Assembly: GCF_964204645.1 (NCBI RefSeq)
Contig: NC_134032.1
Location: 3,496,175 to 3,560,174, forward strand
From: Tubulanus polymorphus
Lineage: Eukaryota > Animalia > Nemertea
DNA length: 64,000 nucleotides
Direction of reading: 5' to 3'
The notes under the pieces were generated by a model. That model was not told the origin of the DNA, did no database searches, and saw nothing but the letters and a program-made list of their open reading frames with translations. The first letter of the stretch is position 1. The number at the start of each line of letters is the position of its first letter. This document shows positions 3,225-60,774 of this stretch, one piece after another. Position numbers and translations under genes: made by a program.

Positions 3225-3329
3225 TTTCTATAAAACTGTTCTATTACAATACTGATTCATGAAATAAAACGCAATCATCAAATACAAATACTTTCGATCT
3301 TTTACTCGGATATTGGTATAATAGTTTTC

Positions 3330-7333: not shown

Positions 7334-7964
7334 GGCCACACACAAAAATCCTGTTTCTCGGCTGGGCAATCACCAAAATGGGTAGGTCGGTAGGGAATTT
7401 TTTTTTCTTTGTATATAAAAAAATATTTCGGGTATTCTTCTGACAGCGGGTAGGTCGCCGTAAATAATTTTGACGGGACCAAATTTCCAGTTAAAAATAG
7501 GATTAGCAGCTAGACGACCACAATAATAAAGGGAAGTTGATGTTTTTTTGTATTATATTTCACACTTGGAAACTGTTTATAAAAAGGAAAACATCAAAAT
7601 CTTGAATAGGCGTATAATATATTGTATACGGAATTCCTGGAATTTTACAATCCAAGGTCGCCAATATCTGATTAGCATCGTTGTCTATATCCAGTATAAG
7701 ATTGTTAAATCCGATGTAATAAGATATTTTTATCATGTCGTCTCGGTGCCGACATCACGATTTCACGAAAAAGAAAAAATATTTACGAGAATGGAGAGCT
7801 TTGTAGTCGGTCGGCCACATATATATTTTTGAAAATAGTCATTTAATCCACAATTTTGAAATAGGGTCGGTAGGCAATTTTATTTTATTTCGAAAATGGT
7901 TATTTCAAATGACAAAATATTGGATCGGTCGGGCCCGAGAAACAGGGTTTTCTTTTGGTGTGCC
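7334..7964. mobile_element. PIF/Harbinger-like MITE related to 4478-4698
   Basis: taa|ggccacacacaaaaatcctgtttctcgg ... ccgagaaacagggttttcttttggtgtgcc|taa, with a TAA duplication and internal ggtcggtagg motifs. Confidence 0.7.
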
Positions 7965-15376: not shown

Positions 15377-15564
15377 GAGTAATAGGGGTAATAGGCTTTC
15401 AGGCAAAGGTCGAAGGGTCGAGCTCGTAAAAATGAAAATAACAATAATTTCCAGTTGAATTAGTCGCACACACTCCTAATTCAACTGGAAATTATTGTTA
15501 TTTTCATTTTTTACTCACTCGCCCCTTCAACCTTTAACCTGAAAGCCTATTACCCCTATTACTC
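15377..15564. repeat. 188-bp imperfect hairpin at the left end of the truncated Polinton copy
   Basis: gagtaataggggtaataggctttcagg... is complementary to ...cctgaaagcctattacccctattactc; loop near 15465-15475. Confidence 0.92.
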
Positions 15565-15795
15565 TTAAAATATTCATGTAAATGAATAACATTTAAATTG
15601 ACAGATTATTCAATATAAAAGTGTAAGCATTTATAGAATAGATATATAGATATATTTACAACATTATTTCAATATTTATATTTGTATGAGTTAGATTTTT
15701 AAACATTAAAAGTGTTAGTAAAGTGTGATTGAAATAATACATGATATAAATCATTGAACTTCTAAAATCAATTTAAAAAAAAATTTAGTATTAAA

Positions 15796-17945: not shown

Positions 17946-18890
17946 AAATACTCAGAACTCCTTTTTCAGTTTTAATAATTCATATTTTGAACAGGTCTTT
18001 GGCACGTCCACGGGAACCCCCTTTGCTCCATTTTAGCAAATTTATTTCTCGAACATGTCGAAACTGAATTATTACCTCCTCTATACTGGCACTCCCCCTA
18101 AGCTTTGGTTACGATATGTTTATGACGTTCTTGCGCTTATTCCTTGCGATTTTGATATTGATTTATTTCTCTTATTCATTAACTCTGTTTACCCCTCGAT
18201 GAACTTCACATTTGAATTGGAAGTTGATGGAAAAATCCCATTTTTAGACGTGTGCATTCATAATTATTTGTCGTGTTTGAAATTCTCAGTTTATAGGAAA
18301 GCCACTCATTCTGGATCCTACTTGCGTTATTTTCCCTTTACCACTTATAGCATAAAACTCGGTGTTGCTCAGGGATTATTTCTTCGTGCTTTTAGGATTT
18401 GCGACCCCCTTTTTCTCGATGATGAACTCACCCAGATCAGGAATTCACTTAATAAGTTAGCTTATCCTTACGACCTTTTGAATAAAGCTCATTTTCGATC
18501 CCGTCGCACCCATTTTTGTAATTCTCGAGTTTCGCGCCCTCAGAAACTCGCTTCACTTGTACCCTCATTATTCTGTTAGCTTGTTTACCTCCGTTTGACA
18601 CTTCCACTCATCCACTCTCCCTCCGTCCCTCCCTCCCCGGATTTTGTTATTTAATTACTTTAATCTTAATCCTTTAATCTTAATCATTTGTCATATTCTA
18701 GTATAAATATCCTGTTATTTGATTTTATTCTCAGTACACCTGATGATGGCTAACAGTTGTACGCCTGATGATGGCTAACAGTTTTACACCTGATGATGGC
18801 TAACAGTTGTACGTCTGATGATGGCTAACAGTTTTACACCTGATGATGCCTAACAGTTGTTAGCGGAAACGTCGCTCCTCAAATAAACCA
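17946..18890 (+). mobile_element. 5'-truncated Penelope-like retroelement (RT C-terminus/thumb and 3' region)
   Basis: NSFFSFNNSYFEQVFGTSTGTP..LANLFLE..WLRYVYD (YVDD mutated)..IPFLDV..VYRKATH..LRAFRIC; followed by hammerhead-like repeats and AATAAA at ~18882. Confidence 0.88.
18736..18874 (+). ncRNA. Hammerhead-ribozyme-like motif preceded by tandem 25-bp partial copies
   Basis: Five units of ac(a/g)(c/t)CTGATGAtg(g/c)ctaacagtt(g/t)t; the last continues into a ctaac-agtt-gttag stem then GAAAC, i.e. CUGAUGA-stem II-GAAA as in Penelope-associated minimal hammerheads. Confidence 0.7.
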
Positions 18891-25900: not shown

Positions 25901-28900
25901 TACTAAGGCTCCACGCTGAAAGCTGATGATAATGATGATTATCCGGTCCAATCCGTGTTTGAATTATCCTCAAAGGTCATAAAAGGGTTCCTCCTCACAG
26001 ATTGCGGTCAAGTGTGAAAAGTCATATTTTTTCCTGTTATTTCTAGTTAAATGGCAGATCGCTGTTTTTAGTGGAATCAAGCGGAGTAGTTCCAGGTTAT
26101 ACTATACCAGTGGAAGAGTTAATATTCAGATTATCGGTGACCGAGGTGAATCACAGTTTACATATCTAGGTTCACAATTCGGGGAACACAGAGAACGAGA
26201 AGATGTGATCATCTTCACGAGAAATATTGGAAAACCTAAAACTGTAAAAATAAAACTCGAATCAGGAGATAGAGAAAAATGGTGGTTGCTAAAACAAGTA
26301 AGTTGTCAATAAGTCCTAAACTGCTCGTAATGTAGGTCAACCTGCTCATTATGTAGGTCATCCTACTCGTGATGTAGGTCATCCTACTCGCGTCGCTATC
26401 TGGAATCGAGGATCATCAGTGATTTACATTTTACAGGTGAATTGATTGAAATAATCAATACAGGTTCCCCTTGCCCTCCTTCCCCCTCTCCCTCTCATTG
26501 TCCTCCTCACCCCTCACAATCTCCCCTTCTACTCTACCCTCCTCACACCCTCTCATTTCTCACTCCCTCACCTCCTCACTAACTCTCTCACCTCCTCACC
26601 CCTCACACCTCTCTCAGGTTTTTACAATCTACCTCTGATTTTCTCGTTGTAGTTCACAATGTTCTCCAGTAAGATTTTCCCGAATCAACAATTTGTCGCT
26701 AACACAACAAAAACGATGTCAGACTCAACCACCAGCACATACATTGGATCGAATCAAGTGGCTGTTATTGAGTTAAAAACTGTAGAATTTGGTGAGTACC
26801 ACAATGAGTACCTCAAGTTAAACACTGTAGATTTTGCTGAGTAGCACAACCTGTAAACCTGCACAGTTGTGACTTCTTAAGCCCGAAAATGGTTGCGTAA
26901 GTTGTTAGTTTGTTTGATTGTGTGGAGTTGAATCTAAGTCCTGTAGCTTGAACTTCAGTTAAAACACGGCGGCGCCGCGAGTCGAACCATATTCAAAATC
27001 GATAATATATATTTGTAGGACCATCAGCAGTGACACAAGTTACAGAAACCACCTCAACGTCAAGTGAGTTATTTTTACAGAAGGTTTAAAAAGTGTACAA
27101 TCAATTGGTTACATGAGCCCCTTGCAGGTTGGGTTAGGTACCATTTGAAAATTGAACAAACATATATATTTATATTTGTAGGACCATCAACAGTGACACA
27201 AGTCACAGAAACCACCTCAACGTCAAGTGAGTTATTTCTATTGATCACCAAAGTTTTAGAAAGTGTACATTCATTTCATGCGAAATAAATACCCTGATTA
27301 AAGCATTTTACTCTTTAAACTTTTTTGAAACAAAAATGCCACGAAAATAATGAATTTGAAACTGTTGACATACAGTTGAGTTTTATATAATTGCAGATTC
27401 TAAAAATGCTGGTCCTGCGGACACGGTGGCTGGTTTCTGGGCAACAGTTGGCAGTGCAATCGGTTTCTCAATTGTGATTGCAATCGTTATCGTAGTAACG
27501 GTCGTGTTGTATGTACACCGCAGAAACATGTATAACAGAAATACTACTGGTTCGTTGTTTATATTTTACAGGGGGTTTGAGAACTCGTCACTCAATGTCG
27601 TAATATTGCTGTATATACAGTTTTAGCAGCATCAGAACCAATTGAATATTCCATGCATAGATTATTCTTATATCTAGAGATTGTCTATACTAGTCAGGAA
27701 CCCGATAATGATGCTGATGATTCATACAAATGATGACTTATACTTAGTATATTGAATTGGAAATATGAATTTGTCAGACTCGAAGACTATCACCAAATAT
27801 TTATGTTCTAGGCAAAACATAGACGTGTGGAATTAGCCCTAAGCAATCATCACAGTCGAGTGGTGACCAGTCAGGTCTGATGACCTGATTACAATACCCG
27901 ATATCATTCTATCATTTGGTCCTCAAAACTTCTTGTAATAGAACGATAACCACACTCAAACGTGGTGAACGGATAATATGATAAAATCCCACTATTTACA
28001 GATTAAAAGAATTTTAGAACAAGAATTTATTTATTCAATCTAAAATATATAGAATACACGACGTTTCGATCTCAGACACCCGACGATGATCTCTAGGGTG
28101 AGATTGAAACGCCGTGTATTCTATATATTTTAGATTGAATAAATAAATTCTTGTTCTAAAATTCTTTTAATCTGTAAATAGTGGGTTTTTATCTTATTTT
28201 CTTGTCTTACTCTTAATAACTGGCAACCATATGAACCGTAAATTAACTATAAACTGTAGGTTCTAATCCGTAGATTTGGCTAGTGCAGTGAACAGTTCAG
28301 TACTAGTACCGGTACTAGTCCTTCCATTATTCCGAAACAAACTATTCCTAAAACTCATCGAGTCCTTGACCTGAAAGAGTTTACTGTTGATGAGAAATAC
28401 GGTGAAACTCTTAGAGTGAATTGAATCAGAACTAAGAATTAGGAGTAAAAAAATAGAGATGACTTCAGTAATGTGACGACTGATCCAAATGACAACTTAC
28501 ACTTAGTAAATTGAAATAGAAATACAAATTGAGACTCAAAATAGAGAGACGACGGGTTGTAATGTTGCGATGATTTCACTGAACTGTTAAATATTCGTCT
28601 ATTTCTTTTTTCAGGTGTGGTTTCTGAACCGGATGTCGTTTATGAATGTTCTGTTGGCGCTAGTGGTAACTCGTGTTTTAACATGTTTGAAATGACGTAA
28701 CTGACTCTGTAGGAATTCTCCGTGATAACGCGATATTTCTCTGTGTTTTGTAGCTCGGATCGACAGACGAACTGTTCCTCCATCTACTCCAGCTGCTCCA
28801 TCTGCTGCTGGTGTCGGGTTCATTGAAGAAGGTGCGCGCGCAGGTCTTCGCGTCCAACCAGAATCCGTTTCGAATTTTTTAAACCGATTCTATTTCTGAA

Positions 28901-31571: not shown

Positions 31572-34301
31572 CATCAGAGCCGTCGGAAGGAATTTTTCAG
31601 TGGCGAGGCTTATTTCTGAAGCATTATGAGAATGCCGGTTTGCTAGCGTATCTATTTAACACCCGTATTGCTCGGGTTAGTTTTACTATCAACGGGTGGC
31701 GCTGTATGTAAATTTCACATAAATCAACGACTTTGGCTATTAGCGGTACTTAAGACCACTTGAAAACATCATAGTCAATTACGCGGTAGTAGTGAAAATA
31801 AAAAGTTACAGTTCGGTGTACAGCACCATAGCACCCATATAATACCACATACATTTTATTCAGACTAAGGACTATTAGTTAACACTGATCTTCATTTCCA
31901 TTAATTAATGATCTGTTGAATTAATAAGTAATCCAGTCTTTCGGTGTTCGAGATAAAATGCCCGCAAAATAAGAACTAACGAACCAAGGCTGACCACAAA
32001 TTGCCCAACAGATAGATTTAAAATTTTTGGAAACGTTTTGACAAGTACTGGCTATATAGGCCCTAGTAAATTATCTGTTTTGCAAACAATTAAGTTGTTT
32101 GGTGTCAAATAACTAGATATGATGTGGACATTAAATTAAAAATTGTTTAACTGACCAATGCTTGACCAGTACTGACCAGTTACCACTAACTAGAACCCAC
32201 CATAAGTAATTTATATGTTTAGTAAAGCAATAAAATCGTGTTTGGGCGTCGAGCTACTAGATACGATGCGGGCTATGATCTAACAACTATTTAACTGACC
32301 AATATTTTACCAATACTGACCTTAAAGTAATTTGTTTATTCTAGAAGCAACACAGTCGTGTTTGGTGTCAAATAATTAGAAATGGTGTGGGCTTTCATCT
32401 AACAACTATTCAAGTGACCAAATATTGACCAATACTGACCACATAGCTATATTTATCTGTTTCGGACACAACTTAGTCGTGTCTCGTATCAAATAATTTC
32501 ATTCGGTCTGAACGTTAATATAATAACTCTTTTACCTGTACAAGCTACACCAGTACTGTCTAATTACCGATTAAATGTTTTTAGAAATAACACGGGGTAT
32601 TGCCTGAATCCTTCGTCAGTACTACTCTTATTAAATGTGTCGTTTTAAAAGTCTTGTCCAATTTTTATTGTAGGAAGCGAGCTAACTTTGAAATTTCCCA
32701 CTAAATGCAAAAGATTTTTACGTAGGGTTTTGAAAGAACAACGTTTCGATTTGTAATTGTAACGTGCGCATTTGAGCCTGTAACGTGCACATTTCACTAG
32801 TGTGAACGTGCGTATCGGTACCAACATACGAAACTTGTCAAACTTTTGCGTTCAAGACGTTTAAACTGAACACTAAAGGAGATATTATATCATATCATAT
32901 CATATCATATCATATCATATCATATATATATGAATAATGAATAGATGGAAGATAATGTAGTAGTTTTGAATGTTTCGTAACTGCCGTCCACTGACCGCAG
33001 ATCATCAAAGTTAATCGCCTCATATGAAATATATATTCGTTATAAGGGATGTAGTAGTTCAGTGAGAATTCAAACTTATGGGTAATTTTAAGTGATCACA
33101 ACGCTGACCAATAGAGAAAGCTGTATCACAACAGAAGTGCGACTAACGTATCTTATTGAAACATTGTAAAATACCGGAGAGTAAATGGGAGAACCCTGAA
33201 TTCGAAACAATTTCACACTCGGATCGTTTACTTTGAAAACACAATTTGCAATTTGTGGACATGCATTATTTCTGCACCAAAAGCATGAAGTATATTATCT
33301 TTGCTCGTAAAAATTTGAAATTTTGAGGAAGATTTTTGGCCTCGTTAACCTGTGAACACGTCCTTCATATATCTTCTAAGACCGATCTTGATATAATGCT
33401 GAGAGTTTAGAGAAAATTATGGTAGGATGTAAACTTAGGCCGCTTCGTATCCGTGGAAGGTTGCTAATTATTGATCTTATACACAATAATCATAAGTACG
33501 TAACACGAGACTCCATAGAATATCGTTTTTCAATCATACGTACACAAATTATTGCGATATAAAGATAAATAGTACTTTAATATACTTTTTACTTCTTATA
33601 CTGAATATTTCTTTAGTAGTATTAATAAAGAGTGGATCAGCAGGCTACCTGAGCCCATTCCACGATTTGAGGTCAGTTGCCAAAAGTTAGTAATTTTACA
33701 TACCAGTGGATAGTTAACATTTAAAATGACAATTAAAACTTCATTGCTAAAAATAACTTTGTATTCGTAGAATAGTTACACTCAAATGCGGAGAATTGAT
33801 AATACTATAATACGATACGAAAATTCACTGTGTACAAATTCAAAAAGATGATCTCTAGTGAACGATCGAACGTTGTGTCGTTATTTTCTAATGATAAAAC
33901 TTGGTTTGAGATTTGAAATGTGTACATATTGGATCTTTTTCATATTAACAGTGTATTTGGTCATGTATCATATTGTATAATGGTTAATTTAAACTAACTG
34001 GTCCCAGAGTTGTATCCTTAAATCCTGTAATAGAGGATGCAATCTTTTTGCGGCAAACAGTACAAATAGCTAGAAAAAGCAACGATAGTGCATTGGTAAA
34101 CTTAAAGCAAGCGTACAATTGGTTGTTTAGGTTTTTCGTTGGGAAAATTAATGTTTAATCATTATTGAAATATCCGAGGCGAGCTTTTCCAGGAATTTAC
34201 AAAGTTGAGCTTTACACAAGGAATTTTTTTTGTAGTCCGATATCCGTGATTACCTCTGGCTTGGAGAGATACAATCTAAAACCAACCGTCGAGTCAAATA
34301 T

Positions 34302-34945
34302 TTTCGTAAAAGCGCCTATAGTCGTCATGAACACCCGATTTGAATTCAAATTCAAAAGACTCCTAAAAACGCACGTGTTTACTCGATTACTGTAAAGCGC
34401 TTGAGCATTTATATGCAAGAATCAGTGAAATTGGCGCTTTATCAGTTGTATTCATCATTCAAACCATTATTCTCCTTATCCTATGAATTTGGAGACCCAT
34501 CCTCGCATGAGAATGAATATAATGTGATTCAATTAAAGATGACACATGGCCTCAATATCATAACGTTATGTTTTTTAACGGGTGGGCGAGATTATATTCT
34601 TATGTTTTTGTTTCTCTGAATGTCGCTATTTAAGAGTTCAATAATAATTCAGTCAACCAAACAAAGGATTTTTCTGTATGTTTCGTGTCCTGTTTTTCCA
34701 TAACCCTAGGACTGCATTTTAGGTATTTTTCGTGGATGACCGAACGCTGCTGTCCCTTTCTAGTAATTTGATGATATCTGTCGAAATCTAAATTTTAAAA
34801 AGGAATCAGGCATATCTCCTTGTTTGATTAAGTAAGAACTCAACTTTAAGGGACACTCCCTTAAAGGCGCCGAAGTAAAATTAGGAGTCTTTTGAATTTG
34901 AATTCAAATCGGGTGTTCATGACGACTATAGGCGCTTTTACGAAA
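34302..34945. mobile_element. Nested inverted-repeat element in the foldback spacer
   Basis: tttcgtaaaagcgcctatagtcgtcatgaacacccg...agactcctaa (34302-~34366) is exactly inverted at 34881-34945. Confidence 0.8.
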
Positions 34946-35323
34946 CTGAATCTTTGTAAATCGATTTAAGTTTCACGTTTACGGCACGCGGTCGGTTAGT
35001 GAATCCGATTTGGTAAATCAAATCGTTTATGGACGCGGTTTAGTAAATTGATTTATTAAATCGACTAACTTGCTCGGCGAGCAAGTTAGTGGCGATTTAG
35101 TCAGTGAAATCCAACTTGGCGTCCTCTTCGACCGCAGGCTAAAGACATCTATTGCAGACCATCATCTATCAATAATTCGGTCACCATTGACGCCCATTTT
35201 CTTTCGAATCGCGACCTTTAGATTGATAAATTGATTCGACTCGTTTACGAAAAACGATTCGATTTACAACATCGAATCGGAATTTAATTAAACCGAATCA
35301 GATTCAATTTCGTAAAAGCGCCT
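34930..35323. mobile_element. MITE with AGGCGCTTTTACGAAA TIRs
   Basis: aggcgcttttacgaaactgaatc ... gattcaatttcgtaaaagcgcct. Confidence 0.75.
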
Positions 35324-38300
35324 TATAATTGAGCATTCTAGGGCTGGAGCAAGAAACGTGTGGGATCGTCCGCCAAGGTATCGCTAAGGAGTCAGTCCGT
35401 GGTGGCTTTTGAAAGCGACGACCGCATATGAATGCATTGATTGAATGACATCTCAAAAGTCAGATTATATAAAATTAAACATGATATACGGAAAGGTTCT
35501 TCCAATTAGGCCTATACTGGTAAAAATGAAATGACCCAATATGTGACATAAATGTTCAATCAAAAAGTAGAAAGTGAATCCGTAATTCAGTATGGTAGGC
35601 CTATTGTTACAACATCAAACACTAAAATTCAATCCTTTGTTAAATTGGAAGCCAGTGTAGATGAGCAAGTATCGTGGTCCCTGATTTTAGTTATCGTAAT
35701 AATTCAAGGCACGCGATTTTGAACTGTTCAACAAGTTGGAGTTTGTGAGTTTGAAATGGAGTGGACTTCAGATATTACTGTTTGCATGCCTATGTCTATT
35801 ACTTAATCTTTTTACTAATCATAGAAAATTGTGGTAAAATATTTGACTCGACGGTTGGTTTTAGATTGTATCTCTCCAAGCCAGAGGTAATCACGGATAT
35901 CGGACCACAAAAAAAATTCCTTGTGTAAAGCTCAACTTTGTAAATTCCTGGAAAAGCTCGCCTCGGATATTTCAATAATGATTAAACATTAATTTTCCCA
36001 ACGAAAAACCTAAACAACCAATTGTACGCTTGCTTTAAGTTTACCAATGCACTATCGTTGCTTTTTCTAGCTATTTGTACTGTTTGCCGCAAAAAGATTG
36101 CATCCTCTATTACAGGATTTAAGGATACAACTCTAAAACCAGTTAGTTTAAATTAACCATTATACAATATGATACATGACCAAATACACTGTTAATATGA
36201 AAAAGATCCAATATGTACACATTTCAAATCTCAAACCAAGTTTTATCATTAGAAAATAACGACACAACGTTCGATCGTTCACTAGAGATCATCTTTTTGA
36301 ATTTGTACACAGTGAATTTTCGTATCGTATTATAGTATTATCAATTCTCCGCATTTGAGTGTAACTATTCTACGAATACAAAGTTATTTTTAGCAATGAA
36401 GTTTTAATTGTCATTTTAAATGTTAACTATCCACTGGTATGTAAAATTACTAACTTTTGGCAACTGACCTCAAATCGTGGAATGGGCTCAGGTAGCCTGC
36501 TGATCCACTCTTTATTAATACTACTAAAGAAATATTCAGTATAAGAAGTAAAAAGTATATTAAAGTACTATTTATCTTTATATCGCAATAATTTGTGTAC
36601 GTATGATTGAAAAACGATATTCTATGGAGTCTCGTGTTACGTACTTATGATTATTGTGTATAAGATCAATAATTAGCAACCTTCCACGGATACGAAGCGG
36701 CCTAAGTTTACATCCTACCATAATTTTCTCTAAACTCTCAGCATTATATCAAGATCGGTCTTAGAAGATATATGAAGGACGTGTTCACAGGTTAACGAGG
36801 CCAAAAATCTTCCTCAAAATTTCAAATTTTTACGAGCAAAGATAATATACTTCATGCTTTTGGTGCAGAAATAATGCATGTCCACAAATTGCAGATTGTG
36901 TTTTCAAAGTAAACGATCCGAGTGTGAAATTGTTTCGAATTCAGGGTTCTCCCATTTACTCTCCGGTATTTTAAATGTTTCAATAAGATACGGTAGTCGC
37001 ACTTCTGTTGTGATACAGCTTTCTCTATTGGTCAGCGTTGTGATCACTTAAAATCACCCATAAGTTTGAATTCTCACTGAACTACTACATCCCTTATAAC
37101 GAATATATATTTCAAATGAGGCGATTAACTTTGATGATCTGCGGTCAGTGGACAGCAGTTACGAAACATTCAAAACTACTACATTATCTTCCATCTATTC
37201 ATTATTCATAAATTATATGATATGATATGATATGATATAATATCTCCTTTAGTGTTCAGTTTAAACGTCTTGAACGCAAAAGTTTGACAAGTTTCGCATG
37301 TTGGTACCGATACGCACGTTCACACTAGTGAAATGTGCACGTTACAGGCTCAAATGCGCACGTTACAATTACAAATCGAAACGTTGTTCGTTCAAAACCC
37401 GATGTGAAAATCTTTTGCATTTAGTGGGAAATTTCAAAGTTAGCTCGCTTCCTACAATAAAAATTGGACAAGACTTTTAAAACGACACATTTAATAAGAG
37501 TAGTACTGACGAAGGATTCAGGCAATACCCCGTGTTATTTCTAAAAACATTTAACCGGTAATTAGACAGTACTGGTGTAGCTTGTACAGGTAAAAGAGTT
37601 GTTATATTTACGTTCAGACCGAATGAAATTATTTGATACGAGACACGACTAAGTTGTGTCCGAAACAGATAAATATAGCTATGTGGTCAGTATTGGTCGA
37701 GATTTGGTCACTTGAATAGTTGTTAGATGAAAGCCCACACCATTTCTAATTATTTGACACCAAACACGACTGTGTTGCTTCTAGAATAAACAAATTACTT
37801 TAAGGTCAGTATTGGTAAAATATTGGTCAGTTAAATAGTTGTTAGATCATAGCCCGCACCGTATCTAGTAGCTCGACGCCCAAACACGATTTTATTGCTT
37901 TACTAAACATATGAATTACATATGGTGGGTTCTAGTTAGTGGTAACTGGTCAGTACTGGTCAAGCATTGGTCAGTTAAACAATTTTTAGTTTAATATCCA
38001 CATTATATCTAGTTATTTGACACCAAATAACCTAATTGTTTGCAAAACAGATAATTTACTATATAGCCAGTACTGGTCATGCATTGGTCAGTTGATAGAC
38101 CAAGGTCCACGCCACGAGTTATTTGATACTAAACATTATTGTGTCGTTTCGGAAAATTTATCTGTTGGGCAATTTGTGGTCAGCCCTGGTTCGTTATTTC
38201 TTATTTTGCGGGCATTTTATCTCGAACCACCGAAAGACTGAATTAGGCTACTAATTAATTCAACAGATCATTAATTAATGGAAATGAAGATCAGTGTTAA

Positions 38301-38887
38301 CTAAGTCCTTAGTCTGAATGAAATGTATGTGGTATTATATGGGTGCTATGGTGCTGTACACCGAACTGTAACTTTTTATTTTCACTACTACCGTAATCGA
38401 CTATGATGTTTTCAAGTGGTCTTAAGTACCGCTAATAGCCGAAAGTCGTTGATTTATGTGAAATTTACATACAGCGCCATCCGTTGGTAGTAAAACTAAC
38501 CCGAGCAGTACGGGTGTTAAATAGATACGCTAGCAAACCGGCATTCTCATAATGGTGAAATACCAACTGCGCACCCCTCGACGGAGAAACCCATCCTCAT
38601 CGGAGCTGCACCGTCGATGTCATACAACTACACTTCGGATACCCCTGAGGACCATACTCTCATCTGGAAAATTTGCGTCTCGAAATGTGCTTCCTTTCTA
38701 TCTAGTCAACACGCGGGATCATCAACTAAGAGAACTTCTACATCATTACCCGAAAAAAATAACTAAAATAAACGATCGGACTATTTACACGTAGAAAACG
38801 ACCAAAAAAATAAAAAAATGGACGAAATGATCTTCAACCTTGTAATAGACGGACGCCGGGCGCCGAAGGCACCCGGAGGATGTCCCT

Positions 38888-43218: not shown

Positions 43219-43487
43219 GAGTAATAGGGATAATGGGCTTTCAGGCCAAAGGTCGAACGGTCGAGCTCGTAAAAAATGAAAAACATAAAAATAATAACAA
43301 TTTCTACTTGAATTACTCGCGAAACTCATAAAAATGAAAAATAAATTCTCACACGCTCGAATTTATTTTTCATTTTCATGAGTTTCACTCCTAATTCAAG
43401 TAGAAATTGTTATTATTTTTATGTTTTTCATTTTTACTCACCCGCCCGTTCAACCTTTAGCTTGAAAGCCCATTATCCCTATTACTC
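43219..43487. repeat. 269-bp imperfect terminal hairpin
   Basis: gagtaatagggataatgggctttcagg...ataaattc [tcacacgctc] gaatttat...gaaagcccattatccctattactc. Confidence 0.93.
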
Positions 43488-43568
43488 TTAAAATATTCAT
43501 ATATATATGAATAACATTTAAATCATTGAACTTCTAAAATCAATTTTAATAAAAAATATAGTATTAAA

Positions 43569-46500
43569 ATGGAAGCAAATAAGTACTACTGCCCAACATG
43601 TAATATCGATATAGACAAATCTCAAAAAGCAAGACACAATAAAACTATAACACATTTAGAGAATAAATTGAAACTAGAATATAAGGATGATATATTAGAA
43701 ACTAAATTAGAAGAATTAAAGAATGAAAAGGAAACATATAAATGTGATACATGTAATCAATCATTCAGTGATAAAAGATATTATAAAGAACATTTAAAAT
43801 CTATAAGTCATATTAGAAATAAGAATAATGATATTTTAGGTGAAGATTATTTTGATAATGATAACGATAAGAAACAGAAGACAATTAAAAGAATAAAAAA
43901 TAAATTAAACAATAAAAGACCATATATGGAAGATGTAAGAAATTATATTAATTCATTAGATAATAAAAAAGATATAGAGATAACCGAAGCATTTAAAAGT
44001 GATATTGGTCCAGCAGCTATCGAGTTTAAATTTCATAAAGGAAAAACATTAGAAGAAAATAAAAAATATTTAGAAAATATGAAAGAAATAATAAAAATAA
44101 TAACTGATGTTGAATATCCTAAAATTAGTATATCAGTTAAAGTAAAGTTTATAAAATCTGAAGATAAACCAATATATAATATAAATTCTCATTCACAACA
44201 TATTATATCTAAACAACATATAGATGATAAATTAAATAAATGTTATAATGAAATAAAAACTAAAATAGAAGAGAAATATTTTGAAGGATCTGGTTTAATA
44301 TTTGATGAGATAATATTTATAACTTTACATGTTTATAACACAAAATATAATAAGTTAACTAAATCAAAACCAATTGATGAAAATAATTTATCATATTATA
44401 AAGATGATAGTATAAATGGAACAAGTTATATTAAACTACCATTTAAAACTAATGGTGTAATAAATATACAAAATTTTGATAACAAATATTTTATATGGGC
44501 TATAATAAGTTGTTTACATCCAGTTGAAGATTATAATAAACATACTTATAGATTAACTCATTATAAACAATTTGAAAATAATTATAAGATAGATAAGTAT
44601 CCTGTTAGAATTAAAAACATTCCCAAAATAGAAAGAGATAATAATTTAAAGATAAATATATTTGATTTAATTAAATTACCAAATACAAAAGGAAATAATA
44701 TTAAACATTATACATTAGAACCTTTATATCTATCAAAAGATTATGATTCAAATGATGTTATAGATATACTATATTATGAGAATCATTATATGTGGATTAA
44801 ACAAATAGATTTATTTTTCAAATCAGAAAATGATCACCATAAAATATATCTATGTAGAAAATGTTTACATAGATTCAGTAATGAAAGTACATTATTAAAT
44901 CATAAACGACTATGTGATAATCATGATTATTGTAAATTAGTTTTACCAAATGAAAAAGATAAAATATTAGAATTCAAAAAATATGATTACAAAAATAAAG
45001 TACCATTTGTAATATATGGAGATTTTGAATCATTAAATAAAGAACTAACTGATCAAGATAGAAAAGAAATATATTATAAAAGAAAGAAATTAAATTCTAA
45101 TGAAAATGATTTTTCAGATGAACCACCAATAACAAATACTATTAAAAAGATTCATCAATCAGCTGCTGCTTTCGGGTTATATATAAAATCTGATTATCCA
45201 GAACTAATTGAAAGTGAATATTATCATTATAGAAATGAAAATGTTATCAATCATTTTTGTGACTTATTAATTGAATATGAAATAAGATTTAGTAAATTAT
45301 TGAATACAAATAAAGAAATAATTATGACAGAAGAAGATAAAGAAGCATTTGAGTTTGCAGATAAATGTTATTATTGTGAAAAGATATTTAATTATAAAGA
45401 TAAAAAAGTAAGAGACCATGATCATTTGAATGGAAAGTTTAGAGGCGCTGCACATGAGAATTGTAATTTGCAAGCCAAAAAAGTAAATTTTGTCCCCATT
45501 ATATTTCACAATTTATCGAGGTATGACGCGCATTTATTCATTAAGCAACTGTGTCATAAAATAGAAGAAATTAATAATGAAATAGAAATATTAAATTCAA
45601 ATAAATCAAAAGATAAAATACCAACTTATAAATTTAGAATGTTAGCTAAAACATCTGAGAATTATATATCATTCCAATTTGGTTGTCTAAGATTTATAGA
45701 TTCTTATAGATTTCTAGCAAGTTCATTAGATAATTTATCAAAATCATTAGTTGATGATGAATTAAAGATATTAAAAGAATATTACCCAAATTATGATGAT
45801 TTTAAATTAATGAGATATAAAGGTGCAATTCCATATTCTTTCTATAAAAATCATAATGATTTTAAAATAACTGAATTATTGAAAGAACAATTCTATGATG
45901 AATTAAAAAATGAATATGTTAAAGATGAAGTTTATAATAGAACATTGAATATTTGGAATCATTTCAAAATAGAAAATCATGGACAATTAGTAGATTTATA
46001 TTTAAAATCAGATGTATTATTATTAACCGATATATTCGAAAGGTTTAGAGATGTAAACCTAAAATATTTTAATATTGATCCTTGTCATTGTTATTCATCA
46101 CCAGGATTAACATGGGATTGTGGATTAAAATTTACAAATATAAAAATGGATTTGTTAACAAATATAGATCAATTACTATTATTTGAAAAATCTATAAGAG
46201 GAGGAGTTTCAGGTGTATTGGGTGATAGATATTTCAATATAAATGATAATCCTGGATATAAATTATTATACATAGATGCAAATAATCTTTATGGTTGGGC
46301 AATGATGGAACCACAACCTTATGGGATGTTTGAAATAACTGAAGTTTTACAAATTGATAAATTTGATTGGAAGAAAAGAATCCTAGATATTGCAGATGAT
46401 TCAGATACTGGTTACTTCTTTGTTGTAGATTTAGAATACCCTGAAAATATCAAATTCAAATCTAGAAATCTAGCATATTGTCCCGAACATAAAACTGTTA

Positions 46501-47600
46501 AACATGAAGAATTATCAAATTATCAAAAAAGAATTAAACTTGATAATCATATTCATACTGAAAAGTTAATGGTAACTCAAGAAGATAAATATAATTATGT
46601 AGTACATTATAGAATGTTGAAGTTTTATTTGAATCAAGGAATGATATTTAAAAAAGTACATAGATATATTTCATTTAATCAATCTAAGTGGTTAGAAAAA
46701 TATATAGATTTTAATACTACACAGAGAACTGAAGCTAAAACTGATTTTGAGAAGGATTACTTTAAACTAATGAACAATGCGTTCTATGGAAAAACATGTG
46801 AAAATATTAGAAATAGAAATGATATTGAGTTAGTTAGTAATGGTAAAAGAATTAGACATTTGCAATCGTATCCGAAATTCAAAGGTAATAGAATATTCGA
46901 TGAAAATTTAGCTGCAGTTAAATTAAAAAGAACTTCTATGAAGTTCAATAAACCTATTTATGTTGGAGCTGCAGTTTTAGAAATTTCAAAGCTATTGATG
47001 TATGAATTCTATTATAATGTATTGCAACCCCATTTTGGGGAAAAACATATAGAAATTCTATACTTTGATACAGATTCTTACATATTAAAGATAAAAAGTG
47101 ATAATATAAAAGATGATTTAAAAATATTAAATCATCATTTTGATTTCAGTAACTATCCAAAAAATCATGAATTGTTTAGCAATGATAATAAAAAAGTTCC
47201 TGGGAAGTTTAAGGATGAATTAGGTGGTGAAGAAATGATAGAGTTCATAGGTATTAGATCTAAAATGTATTCATATAAAACTAAAGAACATGAAGCTAAA
47301 AAGTTAAAAGGAATAACCAAAAGTGTAGTAGAAAAGAATATTCATTTCAAAGATTACATCAATTGTATATTTAATGAAGAAGTTAGAAAACATAAGATGA
47401 AATGTTTAAGATCTGAAGATCATGAAATGTATATTGAAGAGATAGAGAAGATAAGTCTAAACCCATTTGATGATAAAAGATATATTTTAGATGATGGAAT
47501 CCACACAGTCGCCTATGGTTGCAATTTAGATGAATATATAAAATTCAAAAGAGAAGAAACAAAAGAAAATGAGATTATGAAAAGGATTCTAACGTGTTAA
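43569..47600 (+). CDS. polB: Protein-primed family B DNA polymerase with N-terminal C2H2 zinc fingers, terminal-protein/vOTU-like region and EndoVII-like insertion
   Basis: ExoI YGDFES, ExoII FHNLSRYD, ExoIII YLKSDV; polymerase motifs YIDANNLYG, KLMNNAFYGK, YFDTDS; CYYC..VRDHDH..G.FRGAAH..CN; EGSG motif. Confidence 0.97.
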   Translation: MEANKYYCPTCNIDIDKSQKARHNKTITHLENKLKLEYKDDILETKLEELKNEKETYKCDTCNQSFSDKRYYKEHLKSISHIRNKNNDILGEDYFDNDNDKKQKTIKRIKNKLNNKRPYMEDVRNYINSLDNKKDIEITEAFKSDIGPAAIEFKFHKGKTLEENKKYLENMKEIIKIITDVEYPKISISVKVKFIKSEDKPIYNINSHSQHIISKQHIDDKLNKCYNEIKTKIEEKYFEGSGLIFDEIIFITLHVYNTKYNKLTKSKPIDENNLSYYKDDSINGTSYIKLPFKTNGVINIQNFDNKYFIWAIISCLHPVEDYNKHTYRLTHYKQFENNYKIDKYPVRIKNIPKIERDNNLKINIFDLIKLPNTKGNNIKHYTLEPLYLSKDYDSNDVIDILYYENHYMWIKQIDLFFKSENDHHKIYLCRKCLHRFSNESTLLNHKRLCDNHDYCKLVLPNEKDKILEFKKYDYKNKVPFVIYGDFESLNKELTDQDRKEIYYKRKKLNSNENDFSDEPPITNTIKKIHQSAAAFGLYIKSDYPELIESEYYHYRNENVINHFCDLLIEYEIRFSKLLNTNKEIIMTEEDKEAFEFADKCYYCEKIFNYKDKKVRDHDHLNGKFRGAAHENCNLQAKKVNFVPIIFHNLSRYDAHLFIKQLCHKIEEINNEIEILNSNKSKDKIPTYKFRMLAKTSENYISFQFGCLRFIDSYRFLASSLDNLSKSLVDDELKILKEYYPNYDDFKLMRYKGAIPYSFYKNHNDFKITELLKEQFYDELKNEYVKDEVYNRTLNIWNHFKIENHGQLVDLYLKSDVLLLTDIFERFRDVNLKYFNIDPCHCYSSPGLTWDCGLKFTNIKMDLLTNIDQLLLFEKSIRGGVSGVLGDRYFNINDNPGYKLLYIDANNLYGWAMMEPQPYGMFEITEVLQIDKFDWKKRILDIADDSDTGYFFVVDLEYPENIKFKSRNLAYCPEHKTVKHEELSNYQKRIKLDNHIHTEKLMVTQEDKYNYVVHYRMLKFYLNQGMIFKKVHRYISFNQSKWLEKYIDFNTTQRTEAKTDFEKDYFKLMNNAFYGKTCENIRNRNDIELVSNGKRIRHLQSYPKFKGNRIFDENLAAVKLKRTSMKFNKPIYVGAAVLEISKLLMYEFYYNVLQPHFGEKHIEILYFDTDSYILKIKSDNIKDDLKILNHHFDFSNYPKNHELFSNDNKKVPGKFKDELGGEEMIEFIGIRSKMYSYKTKEHEAKKLKGITKSVVEKNIHFKDYINCIFNEEVRKHKMKCLRSEDHEMYIEEIEKISLNPFDDKRYILDDGIHTVAYGCNLDEYIKFKREETKENEIMKRILTC

Positions 47601-47628: not shown

Positions 47629-47970
47629 ATGGAGAGTAAACAAGTACACAGTGAATTCTTAGATAGAATTAAAGATACTTCAAGCGTCAAATCTGTAGAT
47701 TATAAATTCAAAAAGTTAACAGAATTAACAATTCACAAGAAATATTTAATTACTAACATTGAAACAATTACTAATAGATATGGAGATAAATTAGTAATTC
47801 ATTTAGAATATGAAGGATTAAAAGGAAATAAATATAAATTCAGAACTTATTTACCAGATAGATTTCATAGATTATCAAGTGAAGATCTAGAAGAATTATG
47901 TTCTGGAGATTTCTATTTCGTATACAAAGGTAAGAATGAAAAAGGGCACCATGAAATAGATTTCGAATAA
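47629..47970 (+). CDS. Polinton hypothetical protein, 113 aa
   Basis: Intact ORF in the gene block with a TAAATG start. Confidence 0.7.
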   Translation: MESKQVHSEFLDRIKDTSSVKSVDYKFKKLTELTIHKKYLITNIETITNRYGDKLVIHLEYEGLKGNKYKFRTYLPDRFHRLSSEDLEELCSGDFYFVYKGKNEKGHHEIDFE

Positions 47971-52986: not shown

Positions 52987-54234
52987 ATGAGTGGGAGTTA
53001 TATCAATCCTTCTAAGAATCATAGAATATCTAATGCTATTAAAGCAGAAAGATCACATCATATAATTACTCATAACCCTTCTAATATCAATCCCGATGAA
53101 ACTTTATACGTTAGAATCCCTCGATTAACACAAAATACTTTTTATGTTCCAAACTGTATTTATTTATCAGCTGATATAAAAGTAATCGGTAATAATAATA
53201 ATTATGTTGTTGATAATGTTGGAAGATATTTGATTAAAAAGTTAACAATAAAGATTGGTCCAGAAACAGTTTTCTCATTAGATGATTATAATTTATTTAT
53301 GCATTATAAAGATTTATGGTTAACAAAAGAAAATAGAAATAATATGATATTTCAAGGCATCCAATCAGAAAACCAAAATAAATTAAGATCAGAAGCTAAT
53401 AGCGCAATATTAACAAATGATGTAGATAAATTGATAAAAAGTATATATGGAAGCAAATATAAAATTCCATTAGACTTTGAATTGATAAATAATAATGCAC
53501 CTTTATATAAATACGCAATTCAAGAAGATGTTATATTCGAAATAACATTTGCTCCTGTAAATGAAATTGTAATATCTAGCGTTAATAAAGATATGAGTTA
53601 TAAATTATCGAATATATGTTTAGAATATGATACAGTAACTGATGAAAATATTTCAAGTATAATTCAAACTCAATACAATCAAGGATTTTCATTATTATAT
53701 GATTATATTGATAAATTTAAAACTGTAACTATTAATGCAAATGATGAAATAATAAATGAGAATATTAACTTTCCTAGAAGATCTATTAAAGGTATATTAA
53801 TATTTTTTACTATTGGAACGTATACTAATGGCGCAATAAATGTTGACAATTATTATAATCCTGAAATAACAAAAGTAGAAATAACTATCGAAGGTATAGC
53901 GAATAAAATATTTTGTCAAGGAATGAGAATGATTGATCAATGGGTAGAAATTAAAAAACATTTTATGAATGAAAAAGTAAAATCATTTGAAAATTGTAAC
54001 ATTAATCAAATTGATTATTATACCGGTAATAAATATGCATTATGGGTAGATTTTAGAACAACTGAAGATAATTCATTACATGGTTCTGGAAAAAAACTAC
54101 AAAATACAAAAGATGGAATACAATTATTCATGACAAAGAAAAAAGGAATCAAAAATTTTAAAATGCATATTTATATTATATCTGACGCACAATTAAATAT
54201 TATAAATTCACAATTAGATAGTGTTATGTATTAA
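52987..54234 (+). CDS. Putative major capsid protein (double jelly-roll), 415 aa
   Basis: Size, beta-rich pattern and motifs (NPSNINPDETLYVRIP, VDNVGRYLIKKL.I, ALWVDFR..D..LHGSG, HIYIISDAQLNI) match MCP-type ORFs of invertebrate Polintons as recalled; not verified by search. Confidence 0.75.
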   Translation: MSGSYINPSKNHRISNAIKAERSHHIITHNPSNINPDETLYVRIPRLTQNTFYVPNCIYLSADIKVIGNNNNYVVDNVGRYLIKKLTIKIGPETVFSLDDYNLFMHYKDLWLTKENRNNMIFQGIQSENQNKLRSEANSAILTNDVDKLIKSIYGSKYKIPLDFELINNNAPLYKYAIQEDVIFEITFAPVNEIVISSVNKDMSYKLSNICLEYDTVTDENISSIIQTQYNQGFSLLYDYIDKFKTVTINANDEIINENINFPRRSIKGILIFFTIGTYTNGAINVDNYYNPEITKVEITIEGIANKIFCQGMRMIDQWVEIKKHFMNEKVKSFENCNINQIDYYTGNKYALWVDFRTTEDNSLHGSGKKLQNTKDGIQLFMTKKKGIKNFKMHIYIISDAQLNIINSQLDSVMY

Positions 54235-55383: not shown

Positions 55384-55995
55384 TTATTTTATAAATATAT
55401 ATTCATAAGGAAATTGTAATCTCAGTAATAATTTTGAACCTTTATTATTCTTTAATTTATTCATATATTCATCATGTAATTCAGTAGGTATAATTTGATT
55501 TTCTTCCAATGATTGTTGCATAGATTTTCTATCTTTGTTGTAGAAAAAAACTAGAAATCTTATATTCTCTCTAAAATCTTTCACAATTGAATTATATTTC
55601 TGATTCAAAACCCAAGTTGTTATCCCAAAATGTCTACCAGAGAAAGCTAAATAACATAACTCACTTTCTCTAATTTTAGAATCATGTAAATTTGCGCAAT
55701 CATCAATAATAAATAATGTATTTGATCCTTTATAAATATCTAATGCAATTTTTATACAATTATCTAAATTTTCTTTTACTGTTTTAGGATTTAATATAAT
55801 AAACTTTTTTATCTTAACTATATCTCTATTATATGTTTTATTCATTTCATAAGTAGGACAGAATAATATTATATTATCAAAATGATTTTTATAAATAGTT
55901 TCTAATAAATCTAATATGAAGTGTGTTTTACCGCAGTTTGTAACTCCAGTTATTAACATATTATGCGGTTCAAATATAAATAAATCTTTATTCAT
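55384..55995 (-). CDS. A32-like (FtsK/HerA) genome packaging ATPase
   Basis: Walker A GVTNCGKT, Walker B FIIDD, GRHFGI..W...Q.Y motif. Confidence 0.93.
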   Translation of the reverse strand: MNKDLFIFEPHNMLITGVTNCGKTHFILDLLETIYKNHFDNIILFCPTYEMNKTYNRDIVKIKKFIILNPKTVKENLDNCIKIALDIYKGSNTLFIIDDCANLHDSKIRESELCYLAFSGRHFGITTWVLNQKYNSIVKDFRENIRFLVFFYNKDRKSMQQSLEENQIIPTELHDEYMNKLKNNKGSKLLLRLQFPYEYIFIK

Positions 55996-57076
55996 TTATT
56001 CTTTTAATTTTACTAGATAAAATCCATTCATTAAATTTATCATCATATCCTTTATATTTCACCAAAGAATACTTTTTTCCTTTAAGAGTTTTTGTTTTCA
56101 ATACTTTTTCTATTTTGTATTCTATTTCATCTGGATTTGGTACTAATGATAATTCTTGTTCATAAAAATAACCTAATATTTCTTCATCTTTTAAATCAAA
56201 CAATTTATAAACAAAAGGTTTAGTTAATATTATCTTTTTAATCTTGAATATTTCTTCAGTAAAATTAGGGGTATAACCTTTATAAAATGTTTTTCGATAT
56301 TTAGAAATTCTAACATGTTGTCCTATTTTAAATTTAGGTTCACCGAAATCATGTGTAACAAATGCTCCATATAAATTATTCCAAACTATTTCTGAATTTT
56401 CTTCTTTTCTAGCTTGTATAGGTTTCATATTTATAGAACTATGTTTAGAATTATTATAACCTTTAACTAAATCATCTAACACATCGATATATTTATATGT
56501 TTCATTAGCAGTAAAATATTTCCACATTCTAGTTTTCAATGTTTTATTAAATCTTTCTATAACAGATGCTTTTTTATCTGAATGTGTTGAAAAATATTCT
56601 ACATCGTTATCAGTTAATAGTTTTTTAAAATGTTTGTTATAAAATTCTTTACCTTCATCAAATTGTATCTTATCTGGGATAGCTTCTTTAAATATAGATT
56701 TAAAAGCATTTGTTACTTCTATACCAGTTTTATTTTTAATCGGGATACTCCATGCGTATCTACTGAATATATCTATAACATTCAGTATCCAGAAATATCC
56801 TTTGTTATATTCTTCTAAGTTTTTCATGTCAATTAAATCTGCTTGCCATTGTTGGTCAATATATGAAACCATTACTTTTCTTGTTAAATATTTTTTATCC
56901 ATCTTTTTATGAATTTGATATGTGGGTTGATTTTGTAACCATGATTTTAATTCACTATATTTTATATTGCTATTATCAGATTTAATTTTATTCCATAATT
57001 CTGAAACGTTAGAATATGATACTTCACTTTCTGGGTTATAATATAAATCTCTTAAATATTGTTCTTTTTTCATCAT
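55988..57076 (-). CDS. int: Retroviral-like (rve) DDE integrase with C-terminal chromodomain
   Basis: WQADLID, IDIFSRYAW, QFDEGKEF, ASVIERFNKTLK; chromodomain YKIEKVL...LVKYKGYDDKFNEWI. Confidence 0.96.
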   Translation of the reverse strand: MMKKEQYLRDLYYNPESEVSYSNVSELWNKIKSDNSNIKYSELKSWLQNQPTYQIHKKMDKKYLTRKVMVSYIDQQWQADLIDMKNLEEYNKGYFWILNVIDIFSRYAWSIPIKNKTGIEVTNAFKSIFKEAIPDKIQFDEGKEFYNKHFKKLLTDNDVEYFSTHSDKKASVIERFNKTLKTRMWKYFTANETYKYIDVLDDLVKGYNNSKHSSINMKPIQARKEENSEIVWNNLYGAFVTHDFGEPKFKIGQHVRISKYRKTFYKGYTPNFTEEIFKIKKIILTKPFVYKLFDLKDEEILGYFYEQELSLVPNPDEIEYKIEKVLKTKTLKGKKYSLVKYKGYDDKFNEWILSSKIKRINE

Positions 57077-58298: not shown

Positions 58299-58976
58299 TT
58301 AACCACTCATTAAAGACTCAACGTATTGTTCATTATTTGGATTATTATTCCATTGATCAATAAATTTCTTTGCTTTTGTTAACTGTTCTAAATATAACTG
58401 TAAATCTAGTTTGTTTCCTTTACTAATATTTTCTTTCTTTTCGAGTGGTCTCAGGTTCTTCCAATTCCATATCAATTTCTTATTGTGTTCATCATTCATG
58501 TTAAATTTAGAAATAGGCAACACGTGATCTATATGGAAATAATCTCCGTAATTATTTGTGTTCATTTCATCATCGAACTGATATGTAATCCATGATTTTA
58601 AGAATTTATCTGAACAATCTAACAAATTAGATAGTGTGGTTAAATGCGTTTCATTACTAAATAATTGTGATAATCTAGTATTTAAACATTGTTTTATTTT
58701 AAAATTAAAATCTGTTTGATACCTTTTCTTTCGATAATTATTTTGATACTCATTATAATATTCACGATGATCTTCTCGATAATCTGGATTATTTTCTTGC
58801 CATTGTTTATTAACCACTTTTTTACAACTTTTACAGTAATTTTGTAAACCATCTTTCTGAGTATTATTTTTTTGAAAATCTGAAGATTGTTTAATTAATT
58901 CACATTTAGAACATTTCTTATATATATTTATAACACCATTATTGTTTATATTTATAGTGTGTGGTTGTTGTTCCAT
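58299..58976 (-). CDS. HNH endonuclease with N-terminal Cys4 zinc ribbon
   Basis: KKCSKC...F....KDG....CKSC; C-terminal HIDHVLP.SKF...NWKNLRPL...EN.SKGNK. Confidence 0.85.
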   Translation of the reverse strand: MEQQPHTININNNGVINIYKKCSKCELIKQSSDFQKNNTQKDGLQNYCKSCKKVVNKQWQENNPDYREDHREYYNEYQNNYRKKRYQTDFNFKIKQCLNTRLSQLFSNETHLTTLSNLLDCSDKFLKSWITYQFDDEMNTNNYGDYFHIDHVLPISKFNMNDEHNKKLIWNWKNLRPLEKKENISKGNKLDLQLYLEQLTKAKKFIDQWNNNPNNEQYVESLMSG

Positions 58977-60569: not shown

Positions 60570-60774
60570 AAATGTGTTATAGTTTTATTGTGTCTTGCTT
60601 TTTGAGACTTATCTATATCGATATTACATGTTGGGCAGTAGTACTTATTTGCTTCCATTTTAATACTATATTTTTTATTAAAATTGATTTTAGAAGTTCA
60701 ATGATTTATATTTTATTCATATATATATGAATATTTTAAGAGTAATAGGGATAATAGGCTTTCAGGCTAAAGGT
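60570..60774 (-). repeat. Right terminal inverted repeat of the Polinton (truncated within the hairpin)
   Basis: Reverse complement of 43453-43657 with a few mismatches; includes the pPolB start and first zinc finger; breaks off 35 bp into the hairpin arm. Confidence 0.93.

Follow-up and report, generated by a model that had tools for sequence, protein, structure and literature searches.

The closest described counterparts of the element reported here are the Polintons, or Mavericks, of animals, with which it shares a protein-primed family B polymerase (pPolB) that carries a terminal-protein domain, a vOTU-like domain and an HNH-type insert, an rve integrase, an A32 ATPase, a candidate capsid protein and a length of ~17.5 kb. 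The terminal inverted repeat (TIR) is ~460 bp long here and has a mean length of 402 bp in vertebrate Mavericks, and both start with AG; unlike in the Mavericks described in that report, the outer half of the TIR is here an imperfect palindrome of 186-267 bp, and the tip reads AGTAAT instead of (AGT)2 (PMC8097293). The word "hairpin" has no occurrence in the main text of three reports on vertebrate Mavericks, adintoviruses and nematode Polintons (PMC8097293; PMC8502044; bioRxiv 10.1101/2023.08.22.554363), "palindrom" has none in the main text of the two of these papers searched for it, and terminal palindromes in animal Polintons were not found in the literature searched. The exit of a Polinton from the chromosome and the restart of its replication are still presented as a model, panhandle excision (bioRxiv 10.64898/2026.07.28.741278).

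Structured ends have been described in several other systems. In virophages and PLVs of Halocafeteria seosinensis, palindromes were found inside the TIRs and priming by hairpins was proposed; as in our element, these palindromes adjoin the insertion site of integrase-bearing jelly-roll elements. In contrast, the host is a protist, the palindrome has 52 nt in the illustrated subtype, the replication genes are preferentially other than pPolB, and conserved mismatches are absent from the main-text description, although the supplements may list mismatches or pPolB cases (bioRxiv 10.64898/2026.07.28.741278). The present case is an animal Polinton with a pPolB, a palindrome 4-5 times longer and strand-biased mismatches. 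The typical telomeres of Streptomyces combine priming by a terminal protein with a 3' strand whose palindromic sequence folds back through sheared G:A pairs, as is predicted for our element; these replicons are bacterial, have an internal origin, patch their ends by means of Tap/Tpg and carry several short palindromes, whereas here a single long rod accompanies a pPolB, and no homology is implied (PMC4513846). The parvovirus palindrome begins with the very first base of the genome and contains mismatch bubbles, and some termini occur in a single form (PMC8242256). The palindrome of our element is likewise flush with its end, as in the rolling-hairpin terminus of parvoviruses; these viruses, however, depend on an HUH nickase and have no terminal-protein primer, whereas neither an HUH nickase nor an SF3 helicase was found by Pfam among the 15 element ORFs scanned, 11 of which have no confident family. 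According to the description available for bidnaviruses, the counterpart that encodes a pPolB, their ITRs form no such hairpins (PMC4061559). Poxviruses and asfarviruses, too, have TIRs with long hairpins that are AT-rich and incompletely paired, together with a junction-resolving nuclease (PMC11296320).

In this work we analyzed a window of 64,000 nucleotides, the whole stretch of DNA under study, from the nemertean Tubulanus polymorphus. It contains a multicopy Polinton of ~17.5 kb (copy A) which is opened at its left end by a long hairpin, and a fragment of ~2.6 kb from a second copy (copy B, 15378-17946). The features are collected in Table 1. From these analyses we confirmed that the hairpin is a real, conserved and structured Polinton terminus.

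Table 1. Features of the two Polinton copies, with positions in the window
Feature	Position	Strand	Details
Shorter hairpin, left end of copy B	15378..15563	.	186 bp
Imperfect terminal palindrome, copy A	43220..43486	.	267 bp; 116 Watson-Crick pairs and 16 mismatches; lies outermost in left TIR
Element tip AGTAAT, integration boundary	43220..43225	+	Junction reads; variant form of the Maverick end motif (AGT)2 (PMC8097293)
Left TIR, including start of the pPolB gene	43220..43682	+	About 460 bp; probable inner limit from read depth and loose contig ends
Motif at nt 27-46 of outer arm	43246..43265	+	Two GG(T/G)CGA units, 8-nt period; position-fixed; candidate origin-binding site
Outer TC/TC patch	43267..43268	.	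Opposite 43438-43439; tandem GA/AG on minus strand; common to copy B
Middle TC/TC patch	43317..43318	.	Opposite 43389-43390; closes copy B apex (15464-65 opposite 15474-75)
Apical TC/TC patch	43349..43350	.	Opposite 43357-43358, within 64-nt module absent from copy B
Protein-primed family B polymerase (pPolB)	43569..47600	+	1343 aa
pPolB domain order	43569..47600	+	Zinc-finger-like N-terminus, terminal-protein-like domain, vOTU-like domain, EndoVII/HNH insert, polymerase motifs
Endonuclease VII-like insert in pPolB, residues 587-635	45327..45473	+	PF02945 E 5e-5, 23.5 bits, cut-off 23.6
Candidate double-jelly-roll major capsid protein (lead only)	52987..54234	+	Atlas features
A32-type packaging ATPase	55384..55995	-	PF04665 E 5e-12
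Retroviral-type integrase, chromodomain-like C-terminus	55988..57076	-	PF00665 E 2e-9; PF00385 E 8e-5, below cut-off
Stand-alone EndoVII/HNH-like nuclease, last inward-pointing gene at right end	58299..58976	-	phrog_1035 E 1e-20
Right TIR remnant	60570..60774	-	Reverse complement of 43453-43657 at 97%; broken 34 bp into hairpin inner arm; tip gone

Copy A has the pPolB with a terminal-protein domain, the rve integrase, the packaging ATPase and the TIR starting 5'-AG by which Polintons/Mavericks are recognized. The 6-bp target-site duplication of the group would be visible only beside two intact tips, whereas copy A lacks its right tip and copy B is a fragment. The capsid gene is a candidate: its Atlas features are 0.97-0.98 similar to viral clusters in which 10-24% of the members are Capsid_N/DJR-like, this recognition is below threshold, and searches against Pfam, PHROG and PDB gave no match. 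For the stand-alone nuclease the best PDB match has an E-value of only 0.046. An ORF of 113 aa and no known family lies 3' of pPolB in copy A (47629-47970), and instead 5' of it in the related loci L023 (601-933) and L024 (344-685), with 63% identity; a role in single-strand binding would be a guess. In the host flank there are two single-ORF genes for rhodopsin-family 7TM receptors (1766-2518 and 11700-12650), and the presence of such genes elsewhere in the window suggests that the host is an animal. The window also includes a near-palindromic element of ~7 kb (31622-38554), with arms 97-100% complementary and ends CATTATGAG...CTCATAATG, which has no blastn likeness to the Polinton and whose end fragment recurs at 342-524; it is possibly a fold-back DNA transposon. 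Two further inverted-repeat elements, at 2624-3227 (206-nt arms, 90%) and 27972-28201 (103-nt arms, 95%), are probably host MITEs.

When folded as DNA, the hairpin of copy A (43219-43487, 269 nt) forms one rod of -101.5 kcal/mol (z -24.2; none of 200 shuffled sequences was as stable), and that of copy B (15377-15564, 188 nt) reaches -77 kcal/mol (z -21.8); both hairpins are thus present where the original prediction had placed them. The GC content of the hairpin, 32%, compares with 24% for the element. Copy A includes an extra apical module of 64 nt that is missing from copy B, and internal modules of the hairpin look duplicated. The inner-arm counterpart of the motif at nt 27-46 is degenerate, and the spacing of this motif is identical in the related loci L023 and L026 and one base shorter in copy B.

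It had been proposed that the differences between the two copies are compensated in both arms, and this held: among the Watson-Crick pairs of copy A that align to copy B, 69 are unchanged, eight are changed on both sides and still paired, and none is changed on one side only (a ninth two-sided row, at the copy B apex, is a misalignment and was excluded). At 93.9% identity in the downstream coding regions, chance does not account for eight matched double changes. These data show that the arms of the hairpin evolve in concert, which selection and arm-to-arm copying are both able to produce; since such copying also generates covariation, covariation alone is no proof of selection.

The boundary of the element was established with raw genomic reads from another sample labelled as the same species (run X5, of which about 12% was read). 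A total of 2,731 reads leave the element, 2,185 of them before 43220 and 546 before 43219, and their flanks agree at only 0.34-0.35; because these flanks are unrelated and the breakpoint is one, many insertion sites share a single boundary at AG. The homology of the copies starts at the outer edge of the hairpin, as had been proposed, with the correction that the element ends at the A of AG (43220) and not at the G of 43219. A conserved G at position -1 was considered and rejected, since the 546 of 2,731 junction reads (20%) are near the host base frequency.

Read depth is about 1,600-2,260 over 43474-43678 and 800-1,120 over the polymerase body, a ratio of ~2, and loose contig ends lie behind 43681-43682; from both we estimate a TIR of about 460 bp. 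Given that the right end carries the same repeat, the hairpin is the outer part of the TIR. The original prediction had treated it as an alternative to an AG...CT TIR, in sharp contrast with ordinary termini; instead, the 97% identity of the right-end repeat and the doubled depth situate the hairpin inside an ordinary AG-started TIR. The TIR extends over the pPolB promoter region and takes in ~30-38 codons from the beginning of the gene (43569-43682), so that the start of this gene is present at both ends. The break in the right TIR of copy A, at 60774, falls directly next to the equivalent of the conserved mismatch 43254/43452; this is a single case.

The depth over the outer arm (~4,400) is more than twice that of the body, and some ends have no matching polymerase gene at 80% likeness. 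This excess, which could be read as a MITE that became associated independently with Polinton ends, likely reflects diverged families or non-autonomous derivatives that share the tip. Flipped isomers and stand-alone hairpins should both leave loose ends behind 43486. No such ends were seen among the best 6 of 202 rows (the lowest with 414 reads), no duplication flanks the hairpin, and the hairpin has the same position in a relative; an independent MITE is thus hardly credible, and the attribution of the hairpin to the Polinton survived this test. If the rows are ranked by support, flipped isomers and stand-alone MITEs make up at most ~13% of the ends, a comparison that concerns the 2,731 reads in the window orientation and integrated copies only. 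The reads do reveal many internal length variants of the hairpin, including the form of copy B (joint 43321>43386, 175 reads).

The flip/flop isomers raised in the original prediction were therefore not seen within this scope, which bears on the parallel that it had drawn with poxvirus and asfarvirus telomeres. Poxvirus telomeres are covalently closed, occur as flip/flop isomers and have no terminal protein; none of these three features is supported in the Polinton of copy A. A covalently closed telomere of this type, possibly mimicking that of a helper virus, would be in keeping with a hairpin that is long, AT-rich (32% GC) and incompletely paired. However, the terminal protein is kept, flipped isomers have an upper bound of ~13%, the GC content of the hairpin exceeds that of the element, and no helper sequence was found, a pattern made from the end motif having 0 matches in viral contigs. 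We consider this explanation highly improbable.

The mismatches of the hairpin are not distributed at random. The original prediction described patches in which CTC repeatedly faces CTC, at the same places in both copies. Recurrent mismatched patches do exist, but in register they are TC opposite TC, three in copy A and two in copy B, and on the other strand they read as tandem GA/AG. Six of the nine mismatches alignable up to 43316 are shared (43247, 43254, 43261 and 43266-43268, from a script alignment), whereas the other three are paired in copy B; the middle TC/TC patch is also common to both copies by direct reading. The distances between the TC/TC patches (50, 40 and 32 bp) were considered as evidence of helical phasing; since the variants among the reads differ by 3 nt, this idea was abandoned.

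On the strand that starts 5'-AG, the 16 appositions of copy A are C.A/A.C (7), T.C/C.T (7), C.C (1) and G.T (1), and the 10 of copy B are C.A/A.C (6) and T.C/C.T (4). On the opposite strand, which has its 3' end at this terminus, the same sites become G.T, tandem 5'-GA/3'-AG and G.G, so that the mismatches containing G fall on the 3'-terminal strand in 15 of 16 cases in copy A and in 10 of 10 in copy B (binomial p 2.6e-4 for copy A, with sites that are not independent). It has been reported that mismatches with G are the most stable and that tandem GA-AG stacks strongly in DNA (PMC8163305). In agreement, the computed DNA energies of the 3'-terminal and the 5'-AG strand are -111.5 vs -100.2 in copy A and -81.2 vs -75.7 in copy B, and the minus (3'-terminal) strand is thus the one predicted to fold better. 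Sequence context and computed energies in both copies fit a folding of the 3'-terminal strand with sheared G:A pairs; this geometry is predicted, and tandem GA is missing in the relative L023. Regarding variation in the reads, all five mismatches private to copy A have a listed variant that restores pairing (42-67%), in contrast with one of the other 11 (24%); this comparison covers 40 of 106 rows, and reads from one arm can map on the other arm, so it is taken as support and not as a test.

Two explanations bear directly on this polarity. In the first, the palindrome is an excision signal: it would extrude as a cruciform with the element boundary at its base, and cutting by a junction-resolving nuclease would free the exact end. 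T4 EndoVII cuts DNA junctions, and EndoVII-like domains are encoded here; moreover, the base of the palindrome coincides with the boundary to the base, and this route makes no flipped isomer. Nonetheless, a cruciform requires both strands to fold, whereas the mismatches penalise the 5'-AG strand, and no paper joining Polinton, excision and cruciform was found in the literature searched; we regard an excision signal as distinctly improbable. In the second, outward transcripts end in the hairpin or are processed from it, as a terminator or a source of small RNA. G.U and tandem GA stabilise RNA as well (the two strands reach -174 and -151 kcal/mol). The structured RNA that had been suggested is nevertheless very improbable, since it is the antisense strand of pPolB that is favoured, and neither end has an outward-pointing gene; of 13 Rfam matches none reached the gathering score (best 73.7 vs 211 bits), and the coincidence with a DNA end would be left unexplained.

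To examine the conservation of the hairpin, an alignment of 12 polymerases was used to fetch 118 loci, five of which are close relatives with 63-76% polymerase identity. L023 (76%) has a complete hairpin of 257 bp; its tip is AGTAAT and the motif recurs at nt 27-46, though blastn does not align the hairpin to copy A, and the element boundary is placed by the motif instead of by reads. Its mismatches keep the G.T bias (7:1), include no tandem GA, and its two strands fold equally as DNA (-69.4/-69.5). At the apex of the L023 hairpin (about 317-325) the 3'-terminal strand has a three-base GAA loop closed by C-G. Such loops are a very stable type of DNA mini-hairpin. L024 begins inside the hairpin and its inner arm ends in a matching ATTACT, L026 (63%) has the outer arm with the motif and no inner arm, and L025 and L027 have too little upstream DNA to assess the hairpin.

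In a self-blast of the 118 loci, long hairpins upstream of pPolB were detected only in L023, L012 and L102, and most loci stop short of an end; L004, L021 and L050 have TIR pairs that are free of hairpins in the DNA covered, with tips probably outside it, and were counted neither way. The distant loci L012 (31%) and L102 (35%) contain hairpins of ~185 bp (4657-4840 and 7526-7708) located 140-200 bp before the polymerase, with edges ACTACTATA...TATAGTAGT (an ACTACT edge, not AGTAAT), which we record as leads only; that of L012 is intergenic, and its centre is repeated and branched in the way that the junction of two ends might be. The end-motif pattern matched 2 of 102 loci, and a single pPolB query had no match in viral contigs. 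The sequence of L023 indicates that the hairpin architecture recurs in a relative. In consequence, the functional structured terminus of the original prediction stands as a conserved, structured Polinton end, on the basis of the architecture of the relative and of the non-random mismatches, but not as a telomere of the poxvirus or asfarvirus type nor as the mimic of a helper.

The palindrome could also be a by-product of replication, in which fold-back and template switching at the ends make palindromes and homogenise their arms, and mismatches persist only because hosts delete perfect palindromes. Duplicated-looking internal modules, variable lengths, the loss of the inner arm in L026 and at the right end of copy A, and the lack of one-sided changes, which is what arm-to-arm copying leads one to expect, are in line with this. 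What it does not predict is the strand polarity (15 of 16) and the threefold TC/TC motif, the fixed mismatches 43254 and 43261 that flank the compensated position 43258, or the same geometry in a relative that cannot be aligned. We therefore judge this origin improbable.

The priming machinery of the element was also analyzed. The pPolB has 991 homologs, including the PolB of a coral adintovirus. A model of residues 110-680 (62 sequences, pLDDT 82) combines helices with a sheet of four strands; the loop that precedes the last of these strands holds a serine, which is kept in 55 of the 62 sequences. Published terminal-protein domains of the PRD1 type have the same arrangement, and matches of their fold to Y-family polymerases have been described (bioRxiv 10.1101/2024.03.18.585575). 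In our fold search with this domain all the listed matches were Y-family polymerases, one of them an isolated little-finger domain, with weak scores (best E 8.5e-3). The catalytic motif of the vOTU domain is kept in 61 of 62 sequences, copy A being the exception, with an altered motif. Sequence and model thus point to a terminal-protein domain retained in the pPolB of a hairpin-ended element; the hairpin exists alongside protein priming rather than in place of it. What is new and testable in this work is the strand-biased design of G.T and GA beside a terminal protein that has been retained.

Our preferred reading, a tentative one that falls somewhat short of probable, is that the palindrome, the outermost 190-270 bp of the TIR counted from the 5'-AG boundary, folds on the strand with the 3'-OH and acts as a telomere-like origin on single-stranded intermediates. 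On the 3'-terminal strand, G.T wobbles and tandem sheared GA/AG pairs are predicted to keep the helix nearly continuous, and the partner strand would receive C.A and T.C pairs that should disfavour the extrusion of a cruciform in the chromosome. In a strand that pPolB has displaced, or that has been freed from the host, the 3' end could pair flush with the inner arm, and in this form it may be protected and presented for terminal-protein-primed synthesis; such fold-back would remove the need for both ends to meet in a 17-kb panhandle. The mismatches may in turn keep the inner arm from serving as a second origin, as the intact motif at nt 27-46 is present on the outer arm only. The coincidence between the base of the palindrome and the end of the element in 2,731 junction reads and the polarity in both copies (15/16 and 10/10) argue for this origin, as do the compensated stems, the tip and motif spacing common to L023 and the retained terminal-protein domain, and failure to see a flipped isomer is expected when there is no nick-and-unfold step. 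Protein priming on a folded 3' end that contains sheared G:A pairs is already known from the Streptomyces telomeres (PMC4513846).

Several observations count against this telomere-like origin. L023 has no tandem GA and shows equal folding of its two strands, L026 has no inner arm, most of the hairpin is lost from the right end of copy A, and the length of the hairpin is variable; the E-values of the terminal-protein fold are weak, and arm-to-arm copying could explain the covariation without selection. In addition, a flush-paired 3'-OH is itself a good primer, which favours self-priming, and fold-back extension in the presence of Mn2+ has been seen in the Streptomyces system (PMC4513846).

Self-priming would make these elements a clade of animal Polintons that joins terminal-protein priming at open ends with a strand-specific fold-back telomere of sheared GA pairs. 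In this hybrid form of rolling-hairpin replication, the folded 3' end would prime the second strand, and the element's own EndoVII/HNH-like nuclease would open the closed end asymmetrically, with bubbles marking the arm to be cut, so that one orientation is kept. The MVM hairpin has an asymmetric bubble, and terminal resolution is known from AAV. The 3'-terminal T of our element pairs flush and the template continues beyond it. Two EndoVII-like nucleases are available, the stand-alone gene and the insert in pPolB, in which the catalytic-type residues D, H and N are kept in 50, 58 and 57 of the 62 sequences. Homologs of the stand-alone nuclease were found in 4 of the 118 loci (L023, L024, L025 and L048), three of them close relatives, and none in the DNA examined of L026, which also lacks the inner arm. 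Hairpin priming has been proposed for the palindromic ends of virophages and PLVs (bioRxiv 10.64898/2026.07.28.741278), and, as some parvovirus termini of a single form are still thought to use rolling hairpins (PMC8242256), the single orientation seen here is compatible with self-priming. Against it, the conservation of the terminal-protein and vOTU motifs implies that priming is already provided, and simple terminal resolution predicts about 50% flipped ends, compared with the at most ~13% estimated from the best 6 of 202 rows. The EndoVII insert is present across about 90% of the 62 relatives, most with unknown ends, and HNH inserts in such polymerases have been read as homing or intein relics (bioRxiv 10.1101/2024.03.18.585575; bioRxiv 10.1101/2023.08.22.554363). 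Two long pPolB homologs, P0010 and P0024, contain intein-type Pfam domains (PF14890, and PF14528 or PF05204) and have apparent intein insertions. Taken together, we hold self-priming to be possible though doubtful.

If it were true, hybrid replication would give the nuclease insert of pPolB a job and the element a release route from the chromosome, and would link the protein-primed Polintons to the hairpin-ended large DNA viruses. A defined, conserved and strand-biased end offers a short DNA substrate for testing priming, protection, binding and cutting by nucleases. The known Maverick TIRs, which were mined as end-to-end repeats and not as self-complementary ends, are worth re-reading, and terminal palindromes in this group of viruses are not limited to the elements that lost pPolB.
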